30,523 nucleotides of DNA from a virus (taxonomy: Duplodnaviria; Heunggongvirae; Uroviricota; Caudoviricetes). The notes beneath the pieces are model-generated. The model had not been told where the DNA came from and made no database searches. It worked only from the letters and a program-made list of their open reading frames with translations. Shown here piece by piece: positions 2,317 through 23,121 of the stretch. A program made the translations under genes and the position numbers. How positions within the stretch are numbered: the stretch's first letter is position 1; each line of letters begins with the position of its first letter. Location: positions 1 to 30,523 of the IMG/VR virus record IMGVR_UViG_2737471824_000004. One strand, given 5' to 3'.

Positions 2317-2508
2317 TTAAATACTTGTCGTGACTTCTTTATTATCCTGACGAATAACTTTATCAACCTGATAACAGTTACCTGGAATTTTCTGTTCTTC
2401 TGCAGCAGCCATGCATTCTTTCATGGAGTTGTATATTCCTGCAACTATATCAACCGGTTCACCGGAAACAAGAAAAACAGTCATAACAAGCGCGAATACT
2501 GTATTCAT
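2317..2508 (-). CDS. hypothetical small protein with N-terminal hydrophobic segment (63 aa; sits where YdfD lies in Qin)
   Basis: ORF-track ORF; start ATG shares one base with the upstream gene stop (TGATG); N-terminus VFALVMTVFLV is hydrophobic. Confidence 0.5.
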   Translation of the reverse strand: MNTVFALVMTVFLVSGEPVDIVAGIYNSMKECMAAAEEQKIPGNCYQVDKVIRQDNKEVTTSI

Positions 2509-2693
2509 CAGTGTCTCCAGAAAATACCAAGTCTGAGAAGAGCCATTCTGGAAAGTATGGAATTATCATTGAGAAAATAAGGCTCATATTTCCTCATATT
2601 AATGGCATCTTCAGTAAACTCACGGTTACTGATTTGAACACCAATTTCAAAACAACCTTCAGATGTATTGATGTTTGGTAATAACGTTTCCAT
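2508..2693 (-). CDS. dicB: DicB-like cell-division inhibitor (61 aa)
   Basis: METLLPNINTSEGCFEIGVQISNREFTEDAIN closely resembles my recollection of the E. coli DicB N-terminus (MKTLLPNVNTSEGCFEIGV...); C-terminus diverged. True start is ATG at 2693 with RBS GAGGAAACGATA; the track M at 2711 is TTG. Confidence 0.6.
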   Translation of the reverse strand: METLLPNINTSEGCFEIGVQISNREFTEDAINMRKYEPYFLNDNSILSRMALLRLGIFWRH

Positions 2694-2707
2694 TATCGTT
2701 TCCTCGA

Positions 2708-3262
2708 TCAATGGATATTAAGTAACTGCTCCACGGTCATATTTTTAATTACGTCCCTGTTCACAAGCGTCCATCCCTGTTTCTCCAGATAAAAGCGGAA
2801 GGTTTCCAGGGTACAGACTATTGCTCCATCAGGAACGGTTTCAGTGAATTTGATGTTGCCGTGTTCGTCGAAGTGAACAACCAGAGTACGGCCATCGCCA
2901 GGAATCATCTTGTCAGCGGACGGGGTGTTATTCTGGCGCAGCTCTGCCTCCATGCGGTCAAACTCGGCAATGTAGGCTTCTTTGAACGCGGCGGCTTTTT
3001 TGCCGGTGAACCCCATCACCAAAAAAACGAAGCCGTTTTTGGTGATCTGGTACATTGGGAGCTTGCGTCCTGTTGAGTCGGTGTATTCGCTCGACACAAA
3101 ATTGTGCTCAGTGAATTTTGCTGAACAGTCCAGATTGCGAATTTTATCCAACACTCGTTCGTGGCGTTTACCAAAGAACTCGGCGATCGCAACAGACGTA
3201 GTGACAGCGCGACCATTTTCGATGGTTACATCAGGGTGATAAATGGTAGGGGTAGTAGCCAT
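2708..3262 (-). CDS. Rha-family phage regulatory/antirepressor protein with C-terminal domain shared with the ORF6N protein at 17746..18309
   Basis: Rha motif (VAIAEFFGKRHERVLDKIRNL...YQITKNGFVFLVMGFTGKKAAAFKEAYIAEF). Start chosen at ATG 3262 with GGAGG RBS 8 nt upstream; the in-frame upstream extension to 3670 crosses a terminator and a leader whose paralogue is non-coding. Confidence 0.7.
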   Translation of the reverse strand: MATTPTIYHPDVTIENGRAVTTSVAIAEFFGKRHERVLDKIRNLDCSAKFTEHNFVSSEYTDSTGRKLPMYQITKNGFVFLVMGFTGKKAAAFKEAYIAEFDRMEAELRQNNTPSADKMIPGDGRTLVVHFDEHGNIKFTETVPDGAIVCTLETFRFYLEKQGWTLVNRDVIKNMTVEQLLNIH

Positions 3263-3428
3263 GATGGCAGCCTCCGCGATGAATTTAATTAACTCACCAC
3301 CAGAGGTGCTAATCTCATGGGTGGTGAGACGCACAGGGTTAGCACTACCGGTCATCACGGAACCCGGCCAGCCTTGCGGCTGCCCTGCACGCCTCACCAT
3401 AATGCGAATGTGGCTGTGCTTAACGCAT

Positions 3429-3451
3429 AAAAAAACCGCCTGAGCGCGGTT
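3429..3451 (-). terminator. intrinsic terminator in the Rha leader (stem AACCGC/GCGGTT plus U7 on the minus strand)
   Basis: Hairpin at 3434..3451 followed on the minus strand by a 7-T run (plus-strand A-run 3429..3435). Confidence 0.5.
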
Positions 3452-3511
3452 ATGCGCCGTGATTGACTTCGGGGTGCTAATCCCGGCACCCGTTTTATGA
3501 GGTGCAGGTGA

Positions 3512-3540
3512 ACTATAATTCCACCCGTACTGGTTTTCAA
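3512..3540 (-). promoter_or_regulatory. sigma70-like promoter of the Rha cassette (-35 TTGAAA, 17-nt spacer, -10 TATAGT on the minus strand)
   Basis: Minus-strand hexamers at 3535..3540 and 3512..3517; homologous in position and sequence to the promoter at 17469..17497. Confidence 0.4.
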
Positions 3541-3739
3541 TAGCTACATTCAACATTTTCTCTTGCCTTTCATCACCGAAGTGAACTTTATTGATGCGGT
3601 GCCTGGTGCCTCCAGGTGACGTTAACCAGTTAACAATTAACGCCGGATACAGAGAATCCACCCATAACACTGTTTTTAGTTTTAACTGTTCCGCGTGCGC
3701 TTAGCCGCATTCACCGCATCACAAAATTCACTTTAAAAA

Positions 3740-3792
3740 GGGCGGCAGAGCAGTCACGGAGTAAAACTGATACCGCCAAACGTCACCAGAAA
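3740..3792 (-). ncRNA. dicF: DicF small RNA (53 nt), followed by a T-run at 3735..3739
   Basis: Minus strand reads TTTCTGGTGACGTTTGGCGGTATCAGTTTTACTCCGTGACTGCTCTGCCGCCC then TTTTT, matching my recollection of the 53-nt E. coli DicF including its GGCGG/CCGCC terminator stem. Confidence 0.8.
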
Positions 3793-5272: not shown

Positions 5273-5457
5273 GTTGACCTCATTTCCCCTTAACGCCGGG
5301 GTAGCGGAACAAGAACCTGCTGCATAGTTATTAAAGTTGAACCCTGCCGTCATGTTCTTACGCCTCGGGCTGGCTACTTAACCCCTGACCACTGCCTGGT
5401 AACTCGAAGTATTGCCCTGCGTTCTGTGGGGCGGGGTGGGGTGGTGAAATAAGGATG

Positions 5458-5494
5458 CACTTTTAAAGTTATTATGTCAACACTTATAAAGTTA
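5458..5494. promoter_or_regulatory. left operator-like region: two copies of a 14-bp motif (CACTTTTAAAGTTA 5458..5471, CACTTATAAAGTTA 5481..5494) flanking a minus-strand TTGACA
   Basis: Same motif in opposite orientation in the cI/cro intergenic region (TAACTTTTAAAGTG 6522..6535); a -35-like TTGACA (minus, 5475..5480) lies between the copies. Confidence 0.4.
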
Positions 5495-5507
5495 GTTTGT
5501 GTGCAAC

Positions 5508-5531
5508 AAAAACCGCCTCGAGATGAGACGG
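5508..5531 (-). terminator. intrinsic terminator after the repressor-TA operon (imperfect stem CCGTCTC/GAGGCGG plus T5 on minus strand)
   Basis: Plus-strand hairpin 5513..5531 preceded by an A-run 5508..5512. Confidence 0.45.
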
Positions 5532-5544
5532 CCCTGTGAAAGGG

Positions 5545-5832
5545 TTAGTTCTGCTTAGGGAATTGGCGTCTGGCGTGTACTACACTCACGATCTCAATGC
5601 TTAAAGTGGCTACACGGTAAAGAATTATATAGTTAGGGTGAGCTACAATCTCACGCAAGCCAGGTACTCTGTCGCTTGGTGGGTATAAATACGGGTGTTC
5701 GGATAACGGCAGCACACACCCCCTTAATCGCTGCCATAAGCGTTCTGCCGCATCTATGTCGAAACGAGCAATATAACTAGTTATATCATCCAGGTCGGTA
5801 TCTGCGCTTTCAAGCCATAACACGGGTAACAT
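5545..5832 (-). CDS. type II toxin, ParE/RelE superfamily (95 aa)
   Basis: C-terminal signature ...REIVAHPNYIILYRV...VVHARR typical of ParE/RelE toxins; start ATG 3 nt after the upstream antitoxin stop with RBS ACGGAG inside that gene. Confidence 0.7.
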   Translation of the reverse strand: MLPVLWLESADTDLDDITSYIARFDIDAAERLWQRLRGCVLPLSEHPYLYPPSDRVPGLREIVAHPNYIILYRVATLSIEIVSVVHARRQFPKQN

Positions 5833-11092: not shown

Positions 11093-11261
11093 TTTTGGTT
11101 CAACTAAATACAACATCAGTTTTGAAGAATGGCATGAACTGTTAATGGACTATGCCGAGTTACGTGGTGGCAGTGCTGCTGATGCTGAAGCCTGGCGTGA
11201 TGACTACGAAGCAGGAAAAACTCCGGTCGAAGCATATTGTGATGAGTGGGGCGATGAATGA
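11085..11261 (+). CDS. hypothetical small protein (58 aa)
   Basis: Hand translation MADFGSTKYNISFEEWHELLMDYAELRGG...; overlaps neighbours by a few nt at both ends; below track cutoff. Confidence 0.35.
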   Translation: MADFGSTKYNISFEEWHELLMDYAELRGGSAADAEAWRDDYEAGKTPVEAYCDEWGDE

Positions 11262-11617
11262 GCGAGATTAATTATCAGGAAGGGTATGAAACGGCGGGGC
11301 AAGCAAAACCAGTGGCATGGCGATATCGCTACGTGAAAAAAGGCGTTACGGACTTTCAGGAGAAGATGTGGGTTGGTGACTGGAAATATGTACCGACAAA
11401 AGAGGATTGTAACGACAGGCCGAACTATGAAATTCAGGCGTTATTCACTGCCCCGCCTGTGCCACTGACACCAGAAGGATTGATTAAAGCAGTGCGCTTC
11501 TATGAACAGGTTAAGCGTGAAAATCCGCCAGTCGAAACCGGAGCATGGAAAGACGCTGTTGACTGGGTGCTCAAAGAGGCTTGCCAGGCTGTAAACATTG
11601 GCATCAAAGGAGAGTGA
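11258..11617 (+). CDS. hypothetical protein (119 aa)
   Basis: ORF-track ORF; ends ...NIGIKGE, encoded by the 17-bp repeat that also ends the next gene. Confidence 0.45.
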   Translation: MSEINYQEGYETAGQAKPVAWRYRYVKKGVTDFQEKMWVGDWKYVPTKEDCNDRPNYEIQALFTAPPVPLTPEGLIKAVRFYEQVKRENPPVETGAWKDAVDWVLKEACQAVNIGIKGE

Positions 11618-13010: not shown

Positions 13011-13186
13011 TGCAGCGGGTGCTTGAGGCTATCTGTCTCAGGCATGAACACCAAAAGGCAGATAGAGAAAAGCCCCAGTTAACATTACGCGTCCGGCAAG
13101 ACGCTTAACATTAATCTGAGGCTCAATCTATGAACGGCAAATCTAGGTTAGCCTCTTACGTGCCGAAAGGCAAGGAGAAGCAGGCT

Positions 13187-13342
13187 ATGAAGCAGCAAAA
13201 GGCGATGTTAATCGCCCTGATCGTCATCTGTTTAACCGTCATAGTGACGGCACTGGTAACGAGGAAAGACCTCTGCGAGGTACGAATCCGAACCGGCCAG
13301 ACGGAGGTCGCTGTCTTCACAGCTTACGAACCTGAGGAGTAA
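13187..13342 (+). CDS. hokD: Hok/Gef-family type I toxin (51 aa; HokD/RelF-like)
   Basis: MKQQKAMLIALIVICLTVIVTALVTRKDLCEVRIRTGQTEVAVFTAYEPEE: transmembrane helix plus LCEVR...EVAVF signature; AAGGAG RBS; in-frame upstream extension from 13130 is a mok-like leader frame. Confidence 0.75.
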   Translation: MKQQKAMLIALIVICLTVIVTALVTRKDLCEVRIRTGQTEVAVFTAYEPEE

Positions 13343-15371: not shown

Positions 15372-15650
15372 ATGGCGCACGATACCAAATTATACAATTC
15401 TGATGATTCTGCCGTCTTTGCCAGCAGGCGCGGACGGTGTTTTCACGCATTCAAATCTGACTGGTACCAGCATCCCCCATGCACTGAAGAACAGGCCGAG
15501 TGGCTAATTCAGTGCTACCGCAGACACGGATACGAGATTAAGAAAGCCCTCAGCCTCGATTATCGTCACTGGATAATCTCCGTCAGGCTTCCTTACTCTG
15601 AACGCCCACCGCGTCCGTCCCGCACATTCCAGCAACGCATCTGGAGGTAA
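15372..15650 (+). CDS. hypothetical protein (92 aa), just upstream of the DUF968 gene
   Basis: ORF-track ORF; weak RBS. Confidence 0.35.
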   Translation: MAHDTKLYNSDDSAVFASRRGRCFHAFKSDWYQHPPCTEEQAEWLIQCYRRHGYEIKKALSLDYRHWIISVRLPYSERPPRPSRTFQQRIWR

Positions 15651-15651
15651 C

Positions 15652-16710
15652 GTGCGGGTATTACTTCGACCTGTTCTGGTACCGGAACTCGGGCTGGTGA
15701 TCGTTAAGCCGGGCCGTGAATCCATGCCGGTATTCCACAATACCCGGGTATTGGTGGAGCCGGAACCGAAAAGCATGCGTAATCTGCCGTCCGGGGTCGT
15801 TCCTGCCGTTCGCCAGCCGCTGGTGGAAGACAAAACATTGCTGCCGTTTTTCAGTAACGCACGGGTGATTCGTGCTGCTGGTGGTGCTGGTGCATTGTCT
15901 GACTGGCTGTTGCGCCATATTAAATCCTGCCAGTGGCCACACGGCGATTATCATCACAGCGAAACCGTCATTCACCGTTATGGTACCGGCGCAATGGTGT
16001 TGTGCTGGCACTGCGACAACCAGCTGCGTGACCAGACATCCGAATCACTCGAGCAACTTGCTCATCAAAACCTGTCAGCATGGATGATTGACGTCATCGG
16101 TCACGCAATAAGCGGTACGCAGGAGCGTGAATTATCTCTGGCTGAATTATCTTGGTGGGCGGTCCGCAATCAGGTGGCGGACGCGCTACCGGAAGCGGTA
16201 TTACGTCGTTCGCTGGGGTTGCGTGCGGAAAAAATCCGCTCAATGTACCGTGAAAGCGACATCGTACCGGGAGAGCAGACCGCCACCAGCATACTGAAAC
16301 AGCGCACAAAAAATCTTGCGCCGCTGCCTCACGCCCACCAGCAACAGAACCCGCCACAGGAAAAGACGGTGGTCAGCATTGCTGTTGATCCGGAGTCACC
16401 GGCTCAGTATCTCCAGCGCCAGAAACCACAACGGGAAGAGATGCCTGTATACACGCGCTGGGTAAAAACGCAGAAATGCATGACGTGCGGTAATCAGGCA
16501 GATGATCCGCATCACATCATTGGTCATGGACTGGGAGGGATGGGAACAAAGGCTGATGATTTGTTCGTTATTCCGCTGTGCCGTAAATGCCATAACGAAC
16601 TACACGCCGGGGTAAAAGATTTTGAAGAAAAACACGGCAGCCAGCTGTTGTTGCTGATTCGTTTTTTAATGCACGCGAAAAATTCGGGCGTCCTGAAGTG
16701 GAAATCATAA
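15652..16710 (+). CDS. DUF968-family prophage protein (YdfU-like, 352 aa) with C-terminal Cys/His-rich HNH-like motif
   Basis: GTG start after GGAGG; C-terminal CMTCG...HHIIGH...CRKCHNELH; position before rusA and Q matches Qin ydfU. Confidence 0.6.
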   Translation: MRVLLRPVLVPELGLVIVKPGRESMPVFHNTRVLVEPEPKSMRNLPSGVVPAVRQPLVEDKTLLPFFSNARVIRAAGGAGALSDWLLRHIKSCQWPHGDYHHSETVIHRYGTGAMVLCWHCDNQLRDQTSESLEQLAHQNLSAWMIDVIGHAISGTQERELSLAELSWWAVRNQVADALPEAVLRRSLGLRAEKIRSMYRESDIVPGEQTATSILKQRTKNLAPLPHAHQQQNPPQEKTVVSIAVDPESPAQYLQRQKPQREEMPVYTRWVKTQKCMTCGNQADDPHHIIGHGLGGMGTKADDLFVIPLCRKCHNELHAGVKDFEEKHGSQLLLLIRFLMHAKNSGVLKWKS

Positions 16711-17088
16711 ATGACTGAACGCATAGAATTTGTTTTGCCTTACCCGCCGACGGTGAATACTTACTGGCGACGTCGCGGCAGCACATATTTTGTATCAAAA
16801 GCCGGTGAGCGTTATCGCCGAGATGTGGCGCTTATTGTTCGCCATCAGCAACTGAAATTAAACCTCTCCGGAAGGCTGGCGATAAAGATTATTGCAGAGC
16901 CACCGGATAAGCGCCGTCGTGACCTGGACAATATCCTGAAAGCACCGCTGGATGCACTAACGCATGCGGGACTGCTTATCGATGACGAGCAGTTTGATGA
17001 AATCAATATTGTGCGCGGACTGCCTGTTCCTGGTGGGCGGTTGGGCGTGAAGATTTACGAAATTACAGGTGATAACGATGGTGCGTGA
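16711..17088 (+). CDS. rusA: RusA Holliday-junction resolvase (125 aa)
   Basis: [15 protein letters not shown]...[27 protein letters not shown] matches RusA hallmarks. Confidence 0.8.
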
Positions 17089-17464
17089 TATTCAGCAGGT
17101 TATGGAGCGGTGGGGAGCATGGGCTGCGAACAATCACGAAGATGTGTCATGGGCGTCAATCGCTGCTGGTTTTAAAGGATTAATCCCGCCGAAAGTGAAA
17201 TCACGCCCTCAGTGTTCTGATGATGATGCAATGATAATTTGTGGCTGTATGGCCCGGTTGAACAAGAAAAATCAGGATTTGCACGATTTGTTGGTGGATT
17301 ATTACGTAGGTGGAATGACTTTTATGGGGTTGGCACGAAAGCATGGGTGTTCGGATACCTGTATTGGCAAGCGCCTGCAGAAAGCGGAAGGGGTTATTGA
17401 TGGCATGTTGATGATGCTTGATATCCGACTGGAGATGGACAGATACGTAGAACGAATCATGTAG
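17078..17464 (+). CDS. late antiterminator Q (Q21/QuuD-like, 128 aa)
   Basis: [23 protein letters not shown]...[10 protein letters not shown]... resembles DLP12 QuuD as recalled; ATG 17078 with AGGTGA RBS; overlaps the rusA end. Confidence 0.75.
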
Positions 17465-17468
17465 GAGC

Positions 17469-17497
17469 TTGACCAGACACATTGTCCGGGGCTATAT
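17469..17497 (+). promoter_or_regulatory. pR'-like promoter directly after Q (-35 TTGACC, 17-nt spacer, -10 CTATAT/TATATT)
   Basis: Hexamers at 17469..17474 and 17492..17499; homologous to the promoter at 3512..3540. Confidence 0.4.
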
Positions 17498-17560
17498 TCC
17501 TCACGCGTCAGCAAAATCTGGCGTCGGGATTAGGAACCCCGGATAGAGACCGCGACAGAT

Positions 17561-17583
17561 ACACGCCGCGAGCGTGTTTTTTA
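17561..17583 (+). terminator. tR'-like intrinsic terminator (ACACGC-CGCGA-GCGTGT plus T6)
   Basis: Direct reading; about 70 nt downstream of the pR'-like promoter. Confidence 0.5.
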
Positions 17584-17745
17584 TTGTCGTATGCACGCGC
17601 ACATCTGAATTATGGTGGGGCGTATGGGGGAGCTGAAAGGCTCGCCGGTTGGTTTCCCGGTAGTTCCTAACCCTGTACGTCTCACCACCCGATGATTAGG
17701 AACCTGACGGTGGTGATAGTTTAGAAACCACTAGAGGGCGTCATT

Positions 17746-18309
17746 ATGACAACTCAAATCTCTGTTGAAACTCTCTCCCCGATCACCCATAACCAGATTC
17801 CTGTTATTACCACTGAACTTTTGGCGCAGCTTTATGGCACCGAAATTCTGAATATCCAGGTTAACTTCACCAGAAACAAAGAGCGTTTTGTCGCAGGAAA
17901 GCACTTTTTTAAAGCAGCGGGTGAGGAATTAAAAAAATTGCGACTTACTTTAAGTAAGTCACAAAATCCCATCTCTCCCAAAACCCGCTTCCTCATCCTA
18001 TGGACAGAACGCGGAGCTGCCCGCCACGCAAAAATGCTGGAAACAGATCAGGCGTGGGAAGTATTCGAAAAACTGGAAGACTGTTATTTCAGCCAGAAAC
18101 AGCCACCAGCAACACAAAACTCCCCCACCGAAAATGATGGATGCGCATTACTGATCCACTTCGATAAACACGGTCAGGTCGACTTCACGGAAAAAGTACC
18201 CGCCGATGCGATGGTATGCACTCTGGAACGGTTCAAATTTTATCTGGAACAACGCGGCTGGATCGTTGCCAGTAAAGAGCAACTGGTGGAACGACTGATG
18301 CGACTTTAA
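17746..18309 (+). CDS. ORF6N/KilA-N-type antirepressor-like protein with the same C-terminal domain as the Rha protein (187 aa)
   Basis: N-terminal ITTELLAQLYGTE...NKERFVAGKHFF...LWTERGAARHAKML resembles the ORF6N domain; C-terminus LLIHFDKHGQVDFTEKVPADAMVCTLERFKFYLEQRGW parallels the Rha C-terminus; RBS GAGGG. Confidence 0.65.
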   Translation: MTTQISVETLSPITHNQIPVITTELLAQLYGTEILNIQVNFTRNKERFVAGKHFFKAAGEELKKLRLTLSKSQNPISPKTRFLILWTERGAARHAKMLETDQAWEVFEKLEDCYFSQKQPPATQNSPTENDGCALLIHFDKHGQVDFTEKVPADAMVCTLERFKFYLEQRGWIVASKEQLVERLMRL

Positions 18310-18385
18310 AAATTTTCCCCGAACACTTTACGATCGTAAAAAGTTGAATATCCTGTTAAGAGTGGTTACTACGCCACACAGCTTA

Positions 18386-18410
18386 AACCCGCCGATGAGC
18401 GGGTTTTTTT
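18386..18410 (+). terminator. intrinsic terminator (AACCCGC-CGATGA-GCGGGTT plus T7)
   Basis: Direct reading. Confidence 0.6.
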
Positions 18411-18533
18411 GTGCCTGAAAAGCAGTACAGGACGTTAAATGCGCTGGTGGTTGCGAATACCGGCCTTTCAACTTGCTGGCTTTTTCGACAAGAGTTATTG
18501 GTATGTCACGTTAACCAGAAAAGGGAAAAAGAC

Positions 18534-18731
18534 ATGCTAAAACAGCAGGATATGAGCGAAACCGCCAGAGTGGTGTTTAATGAATTAAGCGTCACCGAAC
18601 CAGCGACCGTCGGGGAGATTGCGCAGAATACTTACCTTTCACGCGAATGCTGCCAGTTAATACTGACCCAGCTTGTTATGGCGGGCCTGGCAGATTATCA
18701 GTTCGGTTGTTACAGACGCCTTCCGCAGTGA
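18534..18731 (+). CDS. hypothetical small protein (65 aa)
   Basis: In-frame ATG at 18534 with purine-rich RBS; the track start at 18411 is GTG and overlaps the terminator. Confidence 0.4.
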   Translation: MLKQQDMSETARVVFNELSVTEPATVGEIAQNTYLSRECCQLILTQLVMAGLADYQFGCYRRLPQ

Positions 18732-18881
18732 AGGCTTTTTAATTTGTGGTAATGGGCGGCTGGTGGGTGTTAGCGGCACCTGCCAGCCATCTGCTCATGC
18801 GTTGGGGTCACAAGCAAACCTCAGGCCCATCTGCTTTGCGCAAAAGCGGTATGAGCCTATCAGAGAAGCGCTTATTGATCT

Positions 18882-19943
18882 ATGGCTAATACTGTAAAAA
18901 TATCCAGTTGTGAGTTAATCAACGCTGATTGCCTGGAATTTATCCAGACCTTACCGGAAAACTCTGTCGATCTGATAGTCACAGACCCACCATACTTTAA
19001 AGTGAAGCCAGATGGCTGGGATAACCAGTGGAAGGGCGATGATGATTACCTGAAATGGCTGGATCAGTGTCTGGCGCAGTTCTGGCGGGTGTTAAAACCT
19101 GCCGGAAGCCTTTACCTGTTCTGCGGTCATCGTCTGGCATCTGATATCGAAATCATGATGCGTGAACGCTTTAATGTGCTGAACCACATTATCTGGGCGA
19201 AGCCGTCCGGACGTTGGAATGGGTGTAATAAAGAAAGTCTGCGCGCATATTTTCCTGCCACAGAGCGCGTTCTGTTTGCTGAACATTACCAGGGGCCATA
19301 TCGCGGCAAAAGTGACGGCTATGCAGCAAAAGAAAGGAAACTCAAACAGCACATAATGGCACCGCTGATATCGTATTTCAGGGATGCTCGTGCCGAACTG
19401 GGTATAACGGCAAAACAAATTGCCGAAGCCACAGGTAAGAAAAATATGGTTTCCCACTGGTTTGGTGCCAGTCAGTGGCAGTTGCCGAATGAGGCTGACT
19501 ACCGGAAGTTACAGGCACTGTTTTCCCGTATAGCGGCAGAGAAGTTTCAGGAACAACAACTGGAACAACCACACCACCAGTTGGTGGCATCTTATGATTC
19601 ACTGAATCGCAAATATTCTGAATTGCTGGATGAGTTTAAATCTCTCCGGCGCTGGTTCTCCGTATCAGTCTCCGTGCCTTATACCGATGTCTGGATGCAT
19701 AAACCCGTTCAGTTCTACCCGGGCAAACATCCGTGTGAGAAACCGGCGGATATGCTCAGGCAAATAATCAATGCCAGTAGTCGACCTGGCGATCTGGTTG
19801 CTGATTTCTTTATGGGATCCGGTTCCACAATAAAAGCAGCAATGGCGCTGGGGCGTCGGGCATTAGGTGTTGAGCTTGAGACAGAACGGTTCAATAAGAC
19901 CATTCAGGAAATCAGTATGTTATCAGCAAATACAATTTTGTGA
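18882..19943 (+). CDS. DNA methyltransferase, N6-adenine/N4-cytosine family (beta class; 353 aa)
   Basis: Motif IV DPPY (IVTDPPYF) before motif I FxGSGS (FFMGSGSTIKAA); no adjacent restriction gene. Confidence 0.8.
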   Translation: MANTVKISSCELINADCLEFIQTLPENSVDLIVTDPPYFKVKPDGWDNQWKGDDDYLKWLDQCLAQFWRVLKPAGSLYLFCGHRLASDIEIMMRERFNVLNHIIWAKPSGRWNGCNKESLRAYFPATERVLFAEHYQGPYRGKSDGYAAKERKLKQHIMAPLISYFRDARAELGITAKQIAEATGKKNMVSHWFGASQWQLPNEADYRKLQALFSRIAAEKFQEQQLEQPHHQLVASYDSLNRKYSELLDEFKSLRRWFSVSVSVPYTDVWMHKPVQFYPGKHPCEKPADMLRQIINASSRPGDLVADFFMGSGSTIKAAMALGRRALGVELETERFNKTIQEISMLSANTIL

Positions 19944-20184
19944 ATTAACTCAATTATTAGTGGGACATCTGTTACGTATAATCCGTAACAACACGGTGCA
20001 TCCTGCAATGTAGCAGGGCTGATGTGGTATGATGTAATAAGGATTTTCATCATTTTCATGAGCATCAAAAGTTAAAGGGAGCGAGCCACGGTTGACCACG
20101 CCAAAGGCTCATCGGTAAAAATCCGACACCGTGTCTTCTTAACTCACTTATTGTTTCCACCCATGTTTTTGGATACCTGCTGTA

Positions 20185-20221
20185 GCTGTCAGATTAGCGC
20201 GATAATCTGACAGCTTTTTTT
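20185..20221 (+). terminator. strong intrinsic terminator (12-bp stem GCTGTCAGATTA/TAATCTGACAGC plus T7)
   Basis: Direct reading. Confidence 0.6.
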
Positions 20222-20513
20222 ACAACGAATCCTTCTGATCTGCTTTTGCGGGGCTTTTTTGTATCCGCTCCATGCCCGGCGTATAAGCGGAGGTTGGTCA
20301 GTTTTCTAAAAATTGAAATACCTCACAATTCAGCCAGTTAATGGTTGTTTGTCTGGCGAAGAGTTTGTAAATAAAAAAACGCATGGTGAATCCCCCTAAG
20401 CGGCGGGGCGAATCAGCAGTCAGTTCTGGGATAATCGCGGGTTTGTATGCTGATGCCGGACTCACCGGGAGGCACCCGGCACCATGCATCATGGTCATCC
20501 CCTTGTATGATAC

Positions 20514-20568
20514 CCCTCTCCGGAGGGGTATTTTTTGGATAAAAAAGCCCGCGCTGGGAGGCACGGGC
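20514..20568. terminator. back-to-back terminator-like hairpins (plus: CCCCTC-TCCG-GAGGGG plus T6 at 20514..20537; minus: hairpin 20547..20568 with T6 on the minus strand)
   Basis: Direct reading. Confidence 0.4.
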
Positions 20569-20969
20569 GGCAAGGAATAAAACGTGAAGAAATTTTCACA
20601 GGCGCATAATAATCCGATGTTGCCAGATTTTGCAACTGCAGCATCTGGTTATTATGTGAGCTGGAAAATCAGATTCTGTATGGACTGAAGCCATGCTGTT
20701 ATTTAGGGCCAAAGAGCTGGCTTTTTCCCGCCTTCTCTCCAGTAACGATTAATGAGAAAAGAATGAAATGCTTTTCCTGGGGAGGAGGGCAGTAGAAAAA
20801 AGAACCCGCCAGCAAAAATATGGGGGATGAACAGCTTTTGCTACTCAGGTTGCTGGCGGGTATGGTTCTTCATGAAATAAGAATGTTACGCTGTATTTTT
20901 AATGAAAATGATAATCATTGTCAATTGGTTGTGCGTATTTTTTCATACATGACTGGTAAAGGTGATTCA

Positions 20970-21000
20970 GGCCATCAGAGTTTTGCTGATGGCCTTTTTT
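20970..21000 (+). terminator. intrinsic terminator immediately upstream of the holin (GGCCATCAG-AGTTTTG-CTGATGGCC plus T6)
   Basis: Direct reading. Confidence 0.55.
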
Positions 21001-21033
21001 CTTTCCGGTAGCACAGGTCTGTCGGGGCGGGAT

Positions 21034-21249
21034 ATGTATCAGATGGAAAAAATATCAACAGGCATTGCCTACGGCGCCTCCGCAGGCAGTGCTGGCTACT
21101 GGTTTTTACAATGGCTTGATCAGGTTAGTCCGTCTCAGTGGGCTGCGATTGGTGTGCTGGGGAGCCTGTTCCTGGGTTTTCTGACTTATCTGACGAATCT
21201 GTACTTCAAGATAAAAGAGGACCGTCGCAAGGCGGCGCGGGGAGAGTAA
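21034..21249 (+). CDS. class II pinholin, S21-like (71 aa) with dual-start motif MYQM
   Basis: [38 protein letters not shown]...[13 protein letters not shown] matches phage 21 S as recalled; ATGs at 21034 and 21043. Confidence 0.8.
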
Positions 21250-21253
21250 TTCA

Positions 21254-21805
21254 ATGATTAAAAGCTATGAGTTGATTGTGAAAGGAACCCGCAATTTTGA
21301 GAATAAAGTCTCGGTAATTGTAGCCTTACAGGATAAAGAACGTTTTGCCGGTGAAATTGTTGATCTGAATATCAGCATGGATCGTGTTGAAGGGGCAACG
21401 CTGGAGTTTTACGAGACAGAGGCAATCAAACAGGCAAAGATATTGTTCCGGGATATTGCTGCCGGGTTATGTGAAGGGAACGAACCGTTGCCGGGAAAGC
21501 GCCCCATAATTTTAGAGGCGCAGAATGTGTGGATAACCTACAGAGGAAAACTACCGGGAAGAATTACTGGTTCTCTGAAGACGCCACCTACGGCATTGTG
21601 GTCAGAAAAAGATGATATTGAATCGCTCATTGAAAAACTGGAGGGCAGCGTCGCTGATCTGAATAAAAAATTGTCGGTGCTGATTCCTTCTGAAGATGAA
21701 AAAAAACACCGCGATGAGCAGTTTGCGGCGTTTTACGATTATTGCATTGAAGTTACTCGCAGGAATTTTGTGAAGATTTTTGAGGAGGGTAAATCTCTTC
21801 AGTAA
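21254..21805 (+). CDS. hypothetical protein (183 aa) inserted between holin and endolysin; low GC
   Basis: ATG 21254 preceded by GGAGAG inside the holin 3' end; no recognisable family. Confidence 0.55.
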   Translation: MIKSYELIVKGTRNFENKVSVIVALQDKERFAGEIVDLNISMDRVEGATLEFYETEAIKQAKILFRDIAAGLCEGNEPLPGKRPIILEAQNVWITYRGKLPGRITGSLKTPPTALWSEKDDIESLIEKLEGSVADLNKKLSVLIPSEDEKKHRDEQFAAFYDYCIEVTRRNFVKIFEEGKSLQ

Positions 21806-22013
21806 GCTTAATGGCGGACGCTGCAATTAATTCAGGAAGGTCCACAAGGTCATCTGTCAGTGAATATGATGAAAAATCGGCGGCAGTTCTGTTAAGAAGC
21901 GCTTTAACTAATTCCTTTTCCTTCTCTGGCAACAAGTTGATTAGAGCTACGACTGCTTGCCTGAGTGCGATTAAATCAGCAAAAGTTTGTTTTGGTAGAT
22001 TTGTGTAATCCAT
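21753..22013 (-). CDS. hypothetical protein (86 aa), convergent with and overlapping 21254..21805
   Basis: ATG 22013 (MDYTNLPKQTF...) with GAGGTG RBS; 3' ends of the two genes overlap by about 53 nt. Confidence 0.45.
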   Translation of the reverse strand: MDYTNLPKQTFADLIALRQAVVALINLLPEKEKELVKALLNRTAADFSSYSLTDDLVDLPELIAASAIKLTEEIYPPQKSSQNSCE

Positions 22014-22126
22014 AGTCACCTCTGTGTTTATCAGATTGACATCCTCCTCCCGCCAGTGCCCATCACTGGCGAGGTAAGATTTAACATATCCGGGGATTTG
22101 AAGCCGATAAATCCTGATAAATACCC

Positions 22127-22660
22127 ATGAACGTAAAAATCAGATACAGCCTGTCGGCTGCTGTTCTGGCACTGATTGCCGCCAGTGCTCCTGCCCCTGA
22201 CATTCTCGATCAGTTTCTGGATGAAAAAGAGGGGAATCACACCACTGCATACCTCGATGGCTCCGGCATCTGGACCATCTGTCGGGGTGCCACGATGGTG
22301 GATGGAAAACCCGTTTTTCCCGGTATGAAACTGTCGAAGGAAAAATGCGACCAGGTTAACGCCATTGAACGTGATAAGGCGCTGGCATGGGTGGAACGTA
22401 ATATTAAAGTACCACTGACCGAACCCCAGAAAGCGGGTATCGCGTCATTTTGCCCCTATAACATTGGCCCCGGTAAGTGTTTCCCGTCAACGTTTTATAA
22501 GCGGCTTAATGCAGGTGATCGTAAAGGTGCCTGCGAGGCGATTCGCTGGTGGATTAAGGACAGGGGGCACGATTGCCGCATTCGTTCAAATAACTGTTAT
22601 GGTCAGGTTATTCGTCGTGACCAGGAAAGCGCATTAGCCTGTTGGGGGATAGAGCAGTGA
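22127..22660 (+). CDS. SAR endolysin (R21-type lysozyme, 177 aa)
   Basis: N-terminal signal-arrest-release segment ([16 protein letters not shown]) and E...D...T triad region [20 protein letters not shown]. Confidence 0.85.
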
Positions 22661-23121
22661 GAAGAGTAATCGCGATTATTTATGCTCTGGTTATCTGCAT
22701 CATCGTCTGCCTGTCATGGGCTGTTAATCATTACCGTGATAATGCCATTACCTATAAAGCCCAGCGCGATAAAAATGCCAGAGAACTGAAGCTGGCAAAC
22801 TCGACAATTACTGATATGCAGGTGCGCCAGCGTGATGTTGCTGTGCTCGATGCAAAATACACGAAGGAGTTAGCTGATGCGAAAGCTGAAAATGATGCTC
22901 TGCGTGATGATGTTGCCGCTGGTCGTCGTCGGTTGCGCATCAAAGCAGTCTGTCAGTCAGTGCGTGAAGCCACCACCGCCTCCGGCATGGATAATGCAGT
23001 CTCCCCCAGACTGGCAGACGTCGCTGAACGGGATTATTTTACCCTCAGAGAACGAGTGATGGTGATGCAGAAACAACTGGAAGGAGCGCAAGAATATATC
23101 CGTACTCAATGTCTGAAATAA
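22657..23121 (+). CDS. Rz i-spanin (154 aa)
   Basis: GTG 22657 overlapping the endolysin stop; N-terminal TM then coiled-coil ([18 protein letters not shown]...). Confidence 0.75.
22877..23059 (+). CDS. Rz1 o-spanin lipoprotein embedded in +1 frame within Rz (60 aa)
   Basis: AAGGAG RBS 7 nt upstream; lipobox LPLVVVGC; proline-rich. Confidence 0.7.

Follow-up and report, generated by a model that had tools for sequence, protein, structure and literature searches.

An IsrK/C4-type RNA cassette that very probably gates an antirepressor gene lies between a Q antiterminator gene and its predicted late promoter in an Escherichia coli prophage

In bacteriophages P1 and P7, the immI operon (c4-icd-ant) makes the C4 antisense RNA from the transcript of its own target, with target sequences upstream (a1b1) and downstream (a2b2), and its output is an antirepressor. 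This operon was reportedly described by Citron and Schuster in 1990 (cited in PMC8198154). Immunity of P4 involves a CI RNA together with seqA and seqC; CI causes premature termination and keeps the replication genes off (PMC4825925). In the Salmonella Typhimurium prophage Gifsy-1, the isrK promoter yields both a short terminated small RNA (sRNA), which has been called a structural homologue of the P4 seqA RNA, and a read-through isrK-orf45-anrP-isrJ message of ~910 nt (Hershko-Shalev et al. 2016, PMC4825925). The long message is translationally silent through pairing of the middle of IsrK with the 3' part of "orf45", and IsrK supplied in trans activates translation ~140-fold by competing for that pairing. 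A 45-codon leader open reading frame (ORF), with a stop that overlaps the anrP start (AUGA), couples its translation to that of anrP, and AnrP in turn raises transcription of the operon with the Q-like gene antQ (PMC4825925). Here, we describe a related locus in IMG/VR virus record IMGVR_UViG_2737471824_000004, positions 1 to 30,523, a 30.5-kb stretch that we call the window. In it, a Q antiterminator gene is followed by an IsrK-family RNA, a C4-type antisense RNA, and a gene for an ORF6N antirepressor-like protein (Table 1). A preliminary description of positions 17469 to 17745 had read this order as a Q-acting late promoter (pR') and terminator (tR') that drive an antirepressor instead of lysis genes. 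The features that it noticed are real and nonrandom. By homology, however, the locus belongs to a cassette family that is already known and experimentally characterized, here in E. coli, and is not a rewired Q-dependent late unit.

An Rfam scan matched isrK (RF01394) to 17505-17582 over the full length of the model (1-77), with 66.9 bits against a gathering score of 50, and the C4 antisense RNA (RF01695) to 17608-17692, with 65.7 bits against 45. At a permissive threshold, RF03163 (c4-a1b1, "a1, b1 targets of C4 antisense RNA") matched 17492-17545 with 45.5 bits (E=5.9e-10); its gathering score is 46.7, which is exceeded in Gifsy-1 and VT2-Sakai. The cassette is already represented by two or three Rfam families. 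The RNA region of the cassette shares 81% identity with the isrK locus of Gifsy-1, and at the protein level ORF6N and STM2616/AnrP of that prophage share 56% (E=3e-66). In predicted folds, the IsrK segment forms a 5' hairpin, a second hairpin with a 9-nt loop, and a terminator at 17561-17577 (ACACGC/GCGTGT) with a U-run, and the C4-type RNA folds with -42.3 kcal/mol (z=-3.6), a stability reached by 0/200 shuffles. Given these matches, it is very probable that 17469-18309 is a self-contained, portable IsrK/C4-type regulatory cassette that gates the antirepressor gene.

The window contains the word TTAGGAAC exactly three times, clustered in a 175-nt span, where 0.66 would be expected by chance in the whole window. 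It lies on the plus strand at 17530-17537 in the IsrK loop (site 1) and at 17696-17703 (site 3), and as its complement GTTCCTAA at 17663-17670 in the C4-type RNA (site 2). The preliminary description had given the upstream copy, GGGATTAGGAACCCC at 17526..17540, correctly; both of its inverted arms are present too, the first being one base to the left of the 17664..17671 given there. The exact 8-nt match between sites 1 and 2 sits inside a helix of ~22 bp, and the minimum-energy fold of 17500-17760 recovers this long-range helix, which is "structure A" of PMC4825925. Folded alone, IsrK shows UUAGGAAC in the loop of its second hairpin and the C4-type RNA shows GUUCCUAA, box site 2, unpaired in a junction. 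Site 3 lies in the loop of a hairpin whose 5' arm doubles as the 3' strand of the C4 basal stem.

Using a pattern from the invariant part of the C4-type RNA, we drew 120 further loci from IMG/VR. Boxes were then compared in 95 distinct homologous cassettes, an unselected set, with boxes swapped between classes (200 trials) as the control. The loop box was complementary to both flanking boxes in 88/95 cassettes and in 0/95 when boxes were swapped, site 3 co-varied with site 2 in 92/95, and at least 12 box classes had all three sites matched. A five-copy alignment illustrates the classes: AGGAAC/GTTCCT/AGGAAC in the window, GGCGT/ACGCC/GGCGT in Gifsy-1 and a Shiga toxin (Stx) 2a phage, CGAAC/GTTCG/CGAAC in VT2phi_272, and AGCAC/GTGCT/AGCAC in a second copy within the window. 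The GGCGT box is common to Gifsy-1, many Stx phages, and most sampled copies. Relative to the GGAAC class, the window class has one extra nucleotide, a coordinated insertion at all three sites. In a MAFFT alignment of 27 cassettes, 5/8 site 1:site 2 pairs were changed on both sides and 100% of cells were paired, compared with 13 to 45% when the partners were slid; these 27 had been prefiltered for matching boxes, which makes the 100% partly a matter of construction, and the unbiased figures are those of the census. For site 2:site 3, where MAFFT set site 3 one to two columns out of register, the exact-match census replaces the pair count.

The boxes could instead have arisen as a random repeat or be left over from a duplication, with no function as RNA, as 8-nt matches can be accidental and the word appeared three times in 5/100 shuffles of the window. 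We rejected a chance repeat on the box census (88/95 against 0/95) and the two-sided pair changes. The three-way co-variation over at least 12 classes, the coordinated indel, and the zero matches in swapped controls, together with compensatory mutants that validate the pairing in Gifsy-1 (PMC4825925), leave this explanation with a negligible probability. Those mutants, G28/C162 and G31/C159, fall exactly on sites 1 and 2. Site 3 of Gifsy-1, at about +194 to +199, is beyond the 1-180 nt RNA of the published structural model; it is absent from that model and goes unmentioned in the main text (PMC4825925). On the evidence of co-variation, the three boxes are an RNA-RNA recognition code.

In one IMG/VR record (2703718851_000010, locus L043, ~11150-11380), Q is 100% identical to the window Q and the Q/cassette junction is also identical, with the box reading GGCGT/ACGCC. 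The difference suggests a box exchange within an otherwise identical cassette. The second cassette of the window, on the minus strand at 2508-3791, lies in the early region and consists of DicF (3740-3791), isrK (3429-3505), C4 (3317-3404), a Rha-family cargo gene (2708-3262), and then dicB (2508-2711). For the two window cassettes, predicted IsrK:C4 duplexes have -23.7 and -21.1 kcal/mol when cognate and -16.2 and -14.5 kcal/mol when noncognate; for site 3:C4, the values are -14.1 and -19.3 against -8.2 and -7.5 kcal/mol. Because the cognate duplexes are predicted to be far more stable, these energies suggest that the two circuits are mutually insulated.

Next, we considered the promoter and terminator. 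The promoter-like site at 17469 (TTGACC-18-TATATT, 10/12) and the hairpin with its T-run at 17561..17583 are both present as previously noted. Across 15500-23000, the scan region used for ranking, the 17469 site has the joint best sigma-70 score; taken together, promoter-like sites are no commoner there than in shuffles (10 found, 9.4 expected), and the scan alone thus cannot validate any promoter. A -35/-10 pair stands at a constant distance from the IsrK hairpins ahead of nearly all cassette copies, in every genomic context. Our first regular expression was too narrow, finding a promoter in only 32/101 cassettes; with the sequences aligned on site 1, variant hexamers (TACACT, CATAGT, and TATAGT) appear at a constant register. 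A T6 run separates the two RNAs in 97/101 cassettes. Gifsy-1 numbering (G28, G31, and A107) and the start of the Rfam match would put the start of the sRNA at G17505.

A context census of 128 cassette copies separates these elements from Q. The cassette directly follows a Q gene in 8/128 copies, and 95/128 have no Q within 1.3 kb upstream; its settings include the position after Q (Gifsy-1), between ninE and roi (Stx2 phages), and near the integrase end (VT2phi_272). The Q genes found next to cassettes belong to two families without detectable similarity (E=11), a 131-residue 21/933W type in the window and a 225-residue phage-82 type in Gifsy-1, and yet the cassette promoters of the window and Gifsy-1 are nearly identical. 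Q loads at family-specific DNA elements beside its promoter (10.1101/651190). The cassette promoter is unlikely to be a Q-loading site, since it serves two unrelated Q families and sits far from any Q. Judged by this distribution, the 17469 promoter and 17561 terminator belong to the cassette and not to Q. Behind the C4-type RNA, the cargo is ORF6N, ORF6N plus P22_AR_C, Bro-N, Rha, or PF25738, a 76-residue "Derepression" family protein (IMG/VR loci L004, L011, L035, L022, and L050). By their family assignments, all cargo genes have antirepressor or derepression-type functions.

These results bear on the proposal that 17469 is a Q-dependent pR' and the 17561 hairpin its tR', that Q drives the antirepressor, and that lysis follows by read-through from 17469. 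With its place directly behind Q and its short terminated transcript, the locus looks like the classic arrangement, and there is published material that leans the same way: the IsrK promoter has been mentioned in passing as regulated by antitermination (Sy et al. 2020, PMC7547250), the long Gifsy-1 transcript rose ~8-fold with IsrK in trans in cells able to make AntQ (PMC4825925), and a broad action of AntQ on terminators has been reported. However, the same promoter and terminator occur where no Q is nearby and also stand behind Q genes of two unrelated families, even though the element at which Q loads is specific to its family, and the 17469 promoter is unlike the late-promoter core of this Q family, which is found once, at 18357-18369. 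We regard the proposal as very unlikely. Neither the pR'/tR' assignment nor Q control of the antirepressor is supported, because these elements are the promoter and terminator of the IsrK sRNA, which travel with the cassette.

The window Q, whose identity as a Q gene was borne out (Table 1), is 80 to 83% identical to the Q of VT2-Sakai/933W and BP-4795 up to ...DRYVER and then diverges; an alternative start codon, ATG at 17078, is possible. It matches the Q21 structures 6P18/6JNX distantly (E=2.6e-7 to PDB chains). With phage 21 Q only distantly related, the late-promoter comparison was based on the closer 933W-type Q region. In VT2-Sakai and BP-4795, the DNA directly after Q reads TTTACGATCGTAAAAATCTGCATATCATGATAAGAGTGGTTAC...AACCCGCCGATGCGCGGGTTTTTTT. 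No homology to this post-Q region was detected at 17469-17583; the matching DNA is at 18327-18413, just past the ORF6N stop, where identity to VT2-Sakai 5427-5510 and to the BP-4795 post-Q DNA is ~85%. The conserved late-promoter core TAAGAGTGGTTAC at 18357-18369 is a single copy in the window, and near the holin gene nothing better than 3 mismatches was found, which is at chance frequency. We found the element in 360 phage records, overlapping the 3' ends of annotated Q genes. From these comparisons, 18327-18413 would be the late promoter region that matches the Q family of the window, and since the element directly follows Q in Stx phages but follows ORF6N here, the cassette (17465 to ~18326) is, on this alignment, inserted DNA that parts Q from its late promoter. 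In the DLP12-like phage PhiR68_2 (L129, 600-2850), the element, again ~85% identical, stands ~100 nt ahead of holin S, behind an ompD/nmpC porin gene in reverse orientation. Because the porin gene likewise separates Q from a 933W-type late promoter, the comparison identifies the Q/late-promoter junction as a recurrent insertion point for accessory DNA. The preliminary description had named a late promoter just upstream of the holin as one finding that would speak against its reading; by homology, the Q-cognate promoter does map elsewhere, but 2.7 kb before the holin. The "terminator at 18386" exists as well and belongs to the late regulatory region 18327-18413.

In the Sakai Stx phages, the primary late start was mapped by differential RNA sequencing, 258 nt upstream of the 3' end of tR' (Sy et al. 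2020, PMC7547250). In VT2-Sakai (L004), exactly 258 nt separate 5460, 7 nt past the -10 TATCAT, from the point at 5717-5718 where the U-tract of the second terminator ends. The chromosome coordinates of PMC7547250 are offset from the current record by a constant ~142, presumably through a change of record version. By alignment, the late start of the window would lie near A18361. The segment 18361-18413 folds with -19.8 kcal/mol (z=-3.2), and the first hairpin with its U7 run is conserved with Stx phages (L004 5486-5510), +27 to +50 from the late start.

The same arrangement holds for the other Q type. Every Q-adjacent cassette with enough flanking sequence is followed by a late leader that matches the Q type, 933W-type in the window and L071 and isrJ in Gifsy-1, L100, and L102. 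In a Klebsiella phage and an Enterobacter phage, an IsrJ-family RNA lies 12 to 16 nt after the stop of a phage-82-type Q (L126 2533-2611; L127 2537-2610), with the IsrJ promoter overlapping the 3' end of Q; in Gifsy-1, isrJ (L001 4860-4934) is split from Q by the isrK-C4-anrP cassette. IsrJ thus looks like the late-promoter leader RNA of the phage-82-type Q family, a role for which IsrK has been the candidate in the literature (PMC7547250).

Between the predicted late start and the holin gene lie ~2.7 kb and five terminator-like sites (18385, 18718, 20184, 20509, and 20969). Four of these, at 18385, 20184, 20509, and 20969, had been reported in the preliminary description and were all recovered in our scan, and its expectation that the lysis genes require a distant promoter and long read-through agrees with the lack of a promoter-core copy near the holin and the position of the late element. 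The holin would depend on the 18327-18361 promoter and Q-dependent read-through over this distance. In VT2-Sakai, the way from the late promoter to the lysis genes is taken up by transfer RNAs (tRNAs), stx2AB, and a 1.9-kb esterase gene; by this comparison, a long promoter-to-lysis stretch is usual in this group of phages. A tRNA scan of the window found none, and the 933W pattern of tRNAs after Q thus does not hold here. An STnc100-family RNA recurs in late leaders: it is found at 20352-20540 in the window, after stx2B/stx1B in Stx phages (L004 7537-7742, L005 7250-7463), and after isrJ in a Klebsiella phage (L126 2693-2885).

If the logic of Gifsy-1 operates at the window locus, as its homology to that system leads us to infer, most transcripts would end at the IsrK terminator and give a free 78-nt sRNA, and read-through transcripts would carry the C4-type RNA and the antirepressor message. 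In the long transcript, site 1 would pair with site 2 to give a translationally silent fold, and free IsrK competing in trans for site 2 would turn on translation of the antirepressor. The antirepressor would then inactivate the prophage repressor and allow early transcription, including that of Q. Site 3, located between the C4-type RNA and the ribosome-binding site (RBS) of the antirepressor gene, may be a second target of site 2 that helps to keep the antirepressor off, in the manner of a2/b2 of P1 or seqC of P4. Q would act only at 18327, on polymerase that starts at ~18361 and reads through the terminator-like sites to the holin. The cassette promoter, rather than Q-modified polymerase, most likely drives the antirepressor, with a probable further contribution from early rightward transcription through Q during induction. 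Functional statements for this locus stand on homology and co-variation.

A different account of the same RNAs is that of a pure P1/P4-type immunity module, in which an excised C4-type RNA represses in trans at site 3, by a translation block or by premature termination before the antirepressor gene, IsrK is a titrating decoy, and the lock in cis is secondary. The C4 match and the near-threshold c4-a1b1 match place an antisense RNA between an upstream and a downstream target, as in P1, and site 3 co-varies as strictly as site 1. Furthermore, a stable processed species of STnc1160, the Gifsy-1 equivalent of the C4-type RNA, exists in Salmonella (PMC4825925), and the box class of the window places AGGA within site 3. 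In Gifsy-1, however, mutations at site 1 in cis (G28A and G31A) raise basal expression, where a mere decoy predicts a fall (PMC4825925). In the window, site 3 leaves the RBS uncovered, lying 43 nt ahead of the antirepressor ATG, there is no icd-like coupled ORF after it but only a 4-codon reading frame, and its predicted duplex with site 2 is weaker than that of site 1 with site 2 (-14.1 against -23.7 kcal/mol). These points make the immunity module an unlikely explanation.

Several observations also weigh against a simple transfer of the Gifsy-1 mechanism and of the Stx late switch to the window, the reading that we prefer. First, the coupling of orf45 to anrP cannot operate unchanged here, because the leader ORF, of 27 codons, has its stop codon at 17693-17695, leaving 50 nt to the antirepressor ATG at 17746 and no AUGA overlap. 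Nor can coupling be general, as the overlap is present in only 2/90 distinct cassettes, all Gifsy-1-type copies; across the family, the leader ORF ranges in length from 14 to 45 codons or is continuous in frame with the cargo gene. Second, site 3 lies outside the published model (nt 1-180), and its proposed role comes from our own comparison. Third, constitutive STnc1160 enhanced, rather than blocked, IsrK toxicity in Gifsy-1 (PMC4825925), a result that is hard to square with the C4-type RNA being a simple repressor and that equally tells against the immunity module. Fourth, the late 3' end mapped in Sakai is at the second terminator, which is not conserved in the window, the 18385 hairpin being a candidate tR' here, and the -10 of the putative pR', TATCCT, is weaker than the TATCAT of Stx phages. 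The activity of the 17469 and 18327 promoters and their relation to Q are predictions from sequence.

Table 1. Features of the window around the Q gene, the cassette, and the lysis genes
Feature	Position	Strand	Basis and details
Q antiterminator gene, phage 21/933W type	17069..17464	+	Pfam PF06530, E=2.5e-52
Cassette promoter, PisrK homologue (predicted)	17469..17498	+	-35 TTGACC 17469-17474, -10 TATATT 17493-17498, 18-nt spacer
IsrK-family sRNA	17505..17583	+	Rfam RF01394
C4-type antisense RNA, equivalent of Gifsy-1 STnc1160/"orf45" RNA	17608..17692	+	Rfam RF01695
Leader ORF, 27 codons, positional equivalent of Gifsy-1 orf45	17612..17695	+	Read from sequence
Hairpin TCACCACC/GGTGGTGA, loop holds box site 3	17682..17716	+	Folds
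ORF6N antirepressor-like protein, AnrP homologue	17746..18309	+	Pfam PF10543, E=6e-20; RBS GAGGG 17734-17738
Predicted Q-cognate late promoter pR', 933W type	18327..18369	+	-35 TTTACG 18327-18332, -10 TATCCT 18349-18354
First terminator after pR', candidate tR'	18385..18413	+	Hairpin AAACCCGC/GCGGGTTT + U7, terminator scan
Late leader up to holin	18414..21033	+	Small ORF 18534-18731, DNA methylase 18882-19943, STnc100 RNA 20352-20540
Late-leader terminators	18718-18735, 20184-20215, 20509-20532 (ends STnc100 RNA), 20969-20995	+	Scan
Holin S, phage-21 type, first lysis gene	21034..21249	+	Pfam PF04971, E=2.8e-35
Lysozyme	22127-22660

Among the neighboring genes, the holin begins with an MYQM dual start (21034-21045) typical of the phage 21 pinholin S21, which has 71- and 68-residue forms, and a DUF1327 gene (21254-21805) lies between the holin and lysozyme genes. 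Elsewhere in the prophage, 13017-13192 holds a hok/sok-type toxin-antitoxin RNA (Rfam sok, 112 bits).

The structured leader ahead of the antirepressor gene, with its complementary elements, was among the points of the preliminary description that held, as box co-variation and the ORF6N match both bear it out. What is new here is the box class, the uncoupled leader ORF, the family-wide third site, the box code, and the insertion at the Q/late-promoter junction. We tentatively suggest, as a possibility that is more doubtful than the cassette assignment itself, that the family is a three-site switch for which the published two-partner IsrK model is incomplete, that the box is an address code through which prophages sharing a box can unlock each other, and that the leader after the antirepressor gene is the true antitermination-regulated RNA. 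If this were the case, a box of 5 to 6 nt with at least 12 classes would serve as the address, diffusible IsrK RNAs could unlock the antirepressors of other prophages with the same box, and differing boxes, such as the AGGAAC and AGCAC of this prophage, would keep circuits independent. In Q-adjacent cassettes, the antitermination-regulated leader would then be IsrJ in Gifsy-1 and the 933W-type leader here, and not IsrK.

For annotation, a promoter and short terminated transcript after Q are not automatically pR' and tR'; here and in Gifsy-1, they appear to be those of an inserted sRNA cassette, and the cognate late promoter sits one gene further on. The cassette would be an RNA-gated route to prophage induction that is widespread in E. 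coli, including Stx phages, in which induction determines toxin release, and the box code suggests which prophages could cross-activate. Known principles are unchanged by this work; a system characterized in one Salmonella prophage is extended to a large, diversified family with an unstudied third site.

The comparison with known systems can be drawn as follows. With the late switch of the 933W/Sakai Stx phages and its StxS leader RNA (PMC7547250), the window shares a homologous late promoter region, the related Q, and a late promoter set apart from the holin by several kilobases of accessory genes. It differs in that the promoter is parted from Q by an 860-bp cassette and the Q C terminus is replaced after ...DRYVER, in that neither the StxS part of the leader nor its terminator is conserved, and in a cargo of a methylase and STnc100 rather than tRNAs and stx. 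As in P4, a structured RNA is flanked by upstream and downstream complementary sites on one transcript; the documented output in Gifsy-1, in contrast, is translational activation of an antirepressor. As in the immI operon of P1 and P7, a C4-family RNA lies on the target transcript with flanking target copies, an antirepressor is the output, and short variable boxes define specificity classes, such as those that set P1 apart from P7. Unlike immI, the window has one box instead of two (a and b) and no icd gene, its downstream box misses the RBS of any coupled ORF, and the upstream target is a separate terminated sRNA, activating in Gifsy-1, and not a mere processing by-product. Compared with Gifsy-1 isrK-orf45-anrP-isrJ (PMC4825925), the window carries the AGGAAC/GTTCCT box instead of GGCGT/ACGCC, one nucleotide longer at all three sites, a 27-codon leader ORF without the AUGA overlap, a Q of the 21/933W family instead of the 82 family, and a 933W-type late leader instead of IsrJ. 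The order is nonetheless the same in both, with Q followed by a separate promoter, IsrK and its terminator, a C4-type RNA, an ORF6N antirepressor, and a short late-leader transcript, and in both the IsrK loop is predicted to form a long-range helix with the C4-type RNA.

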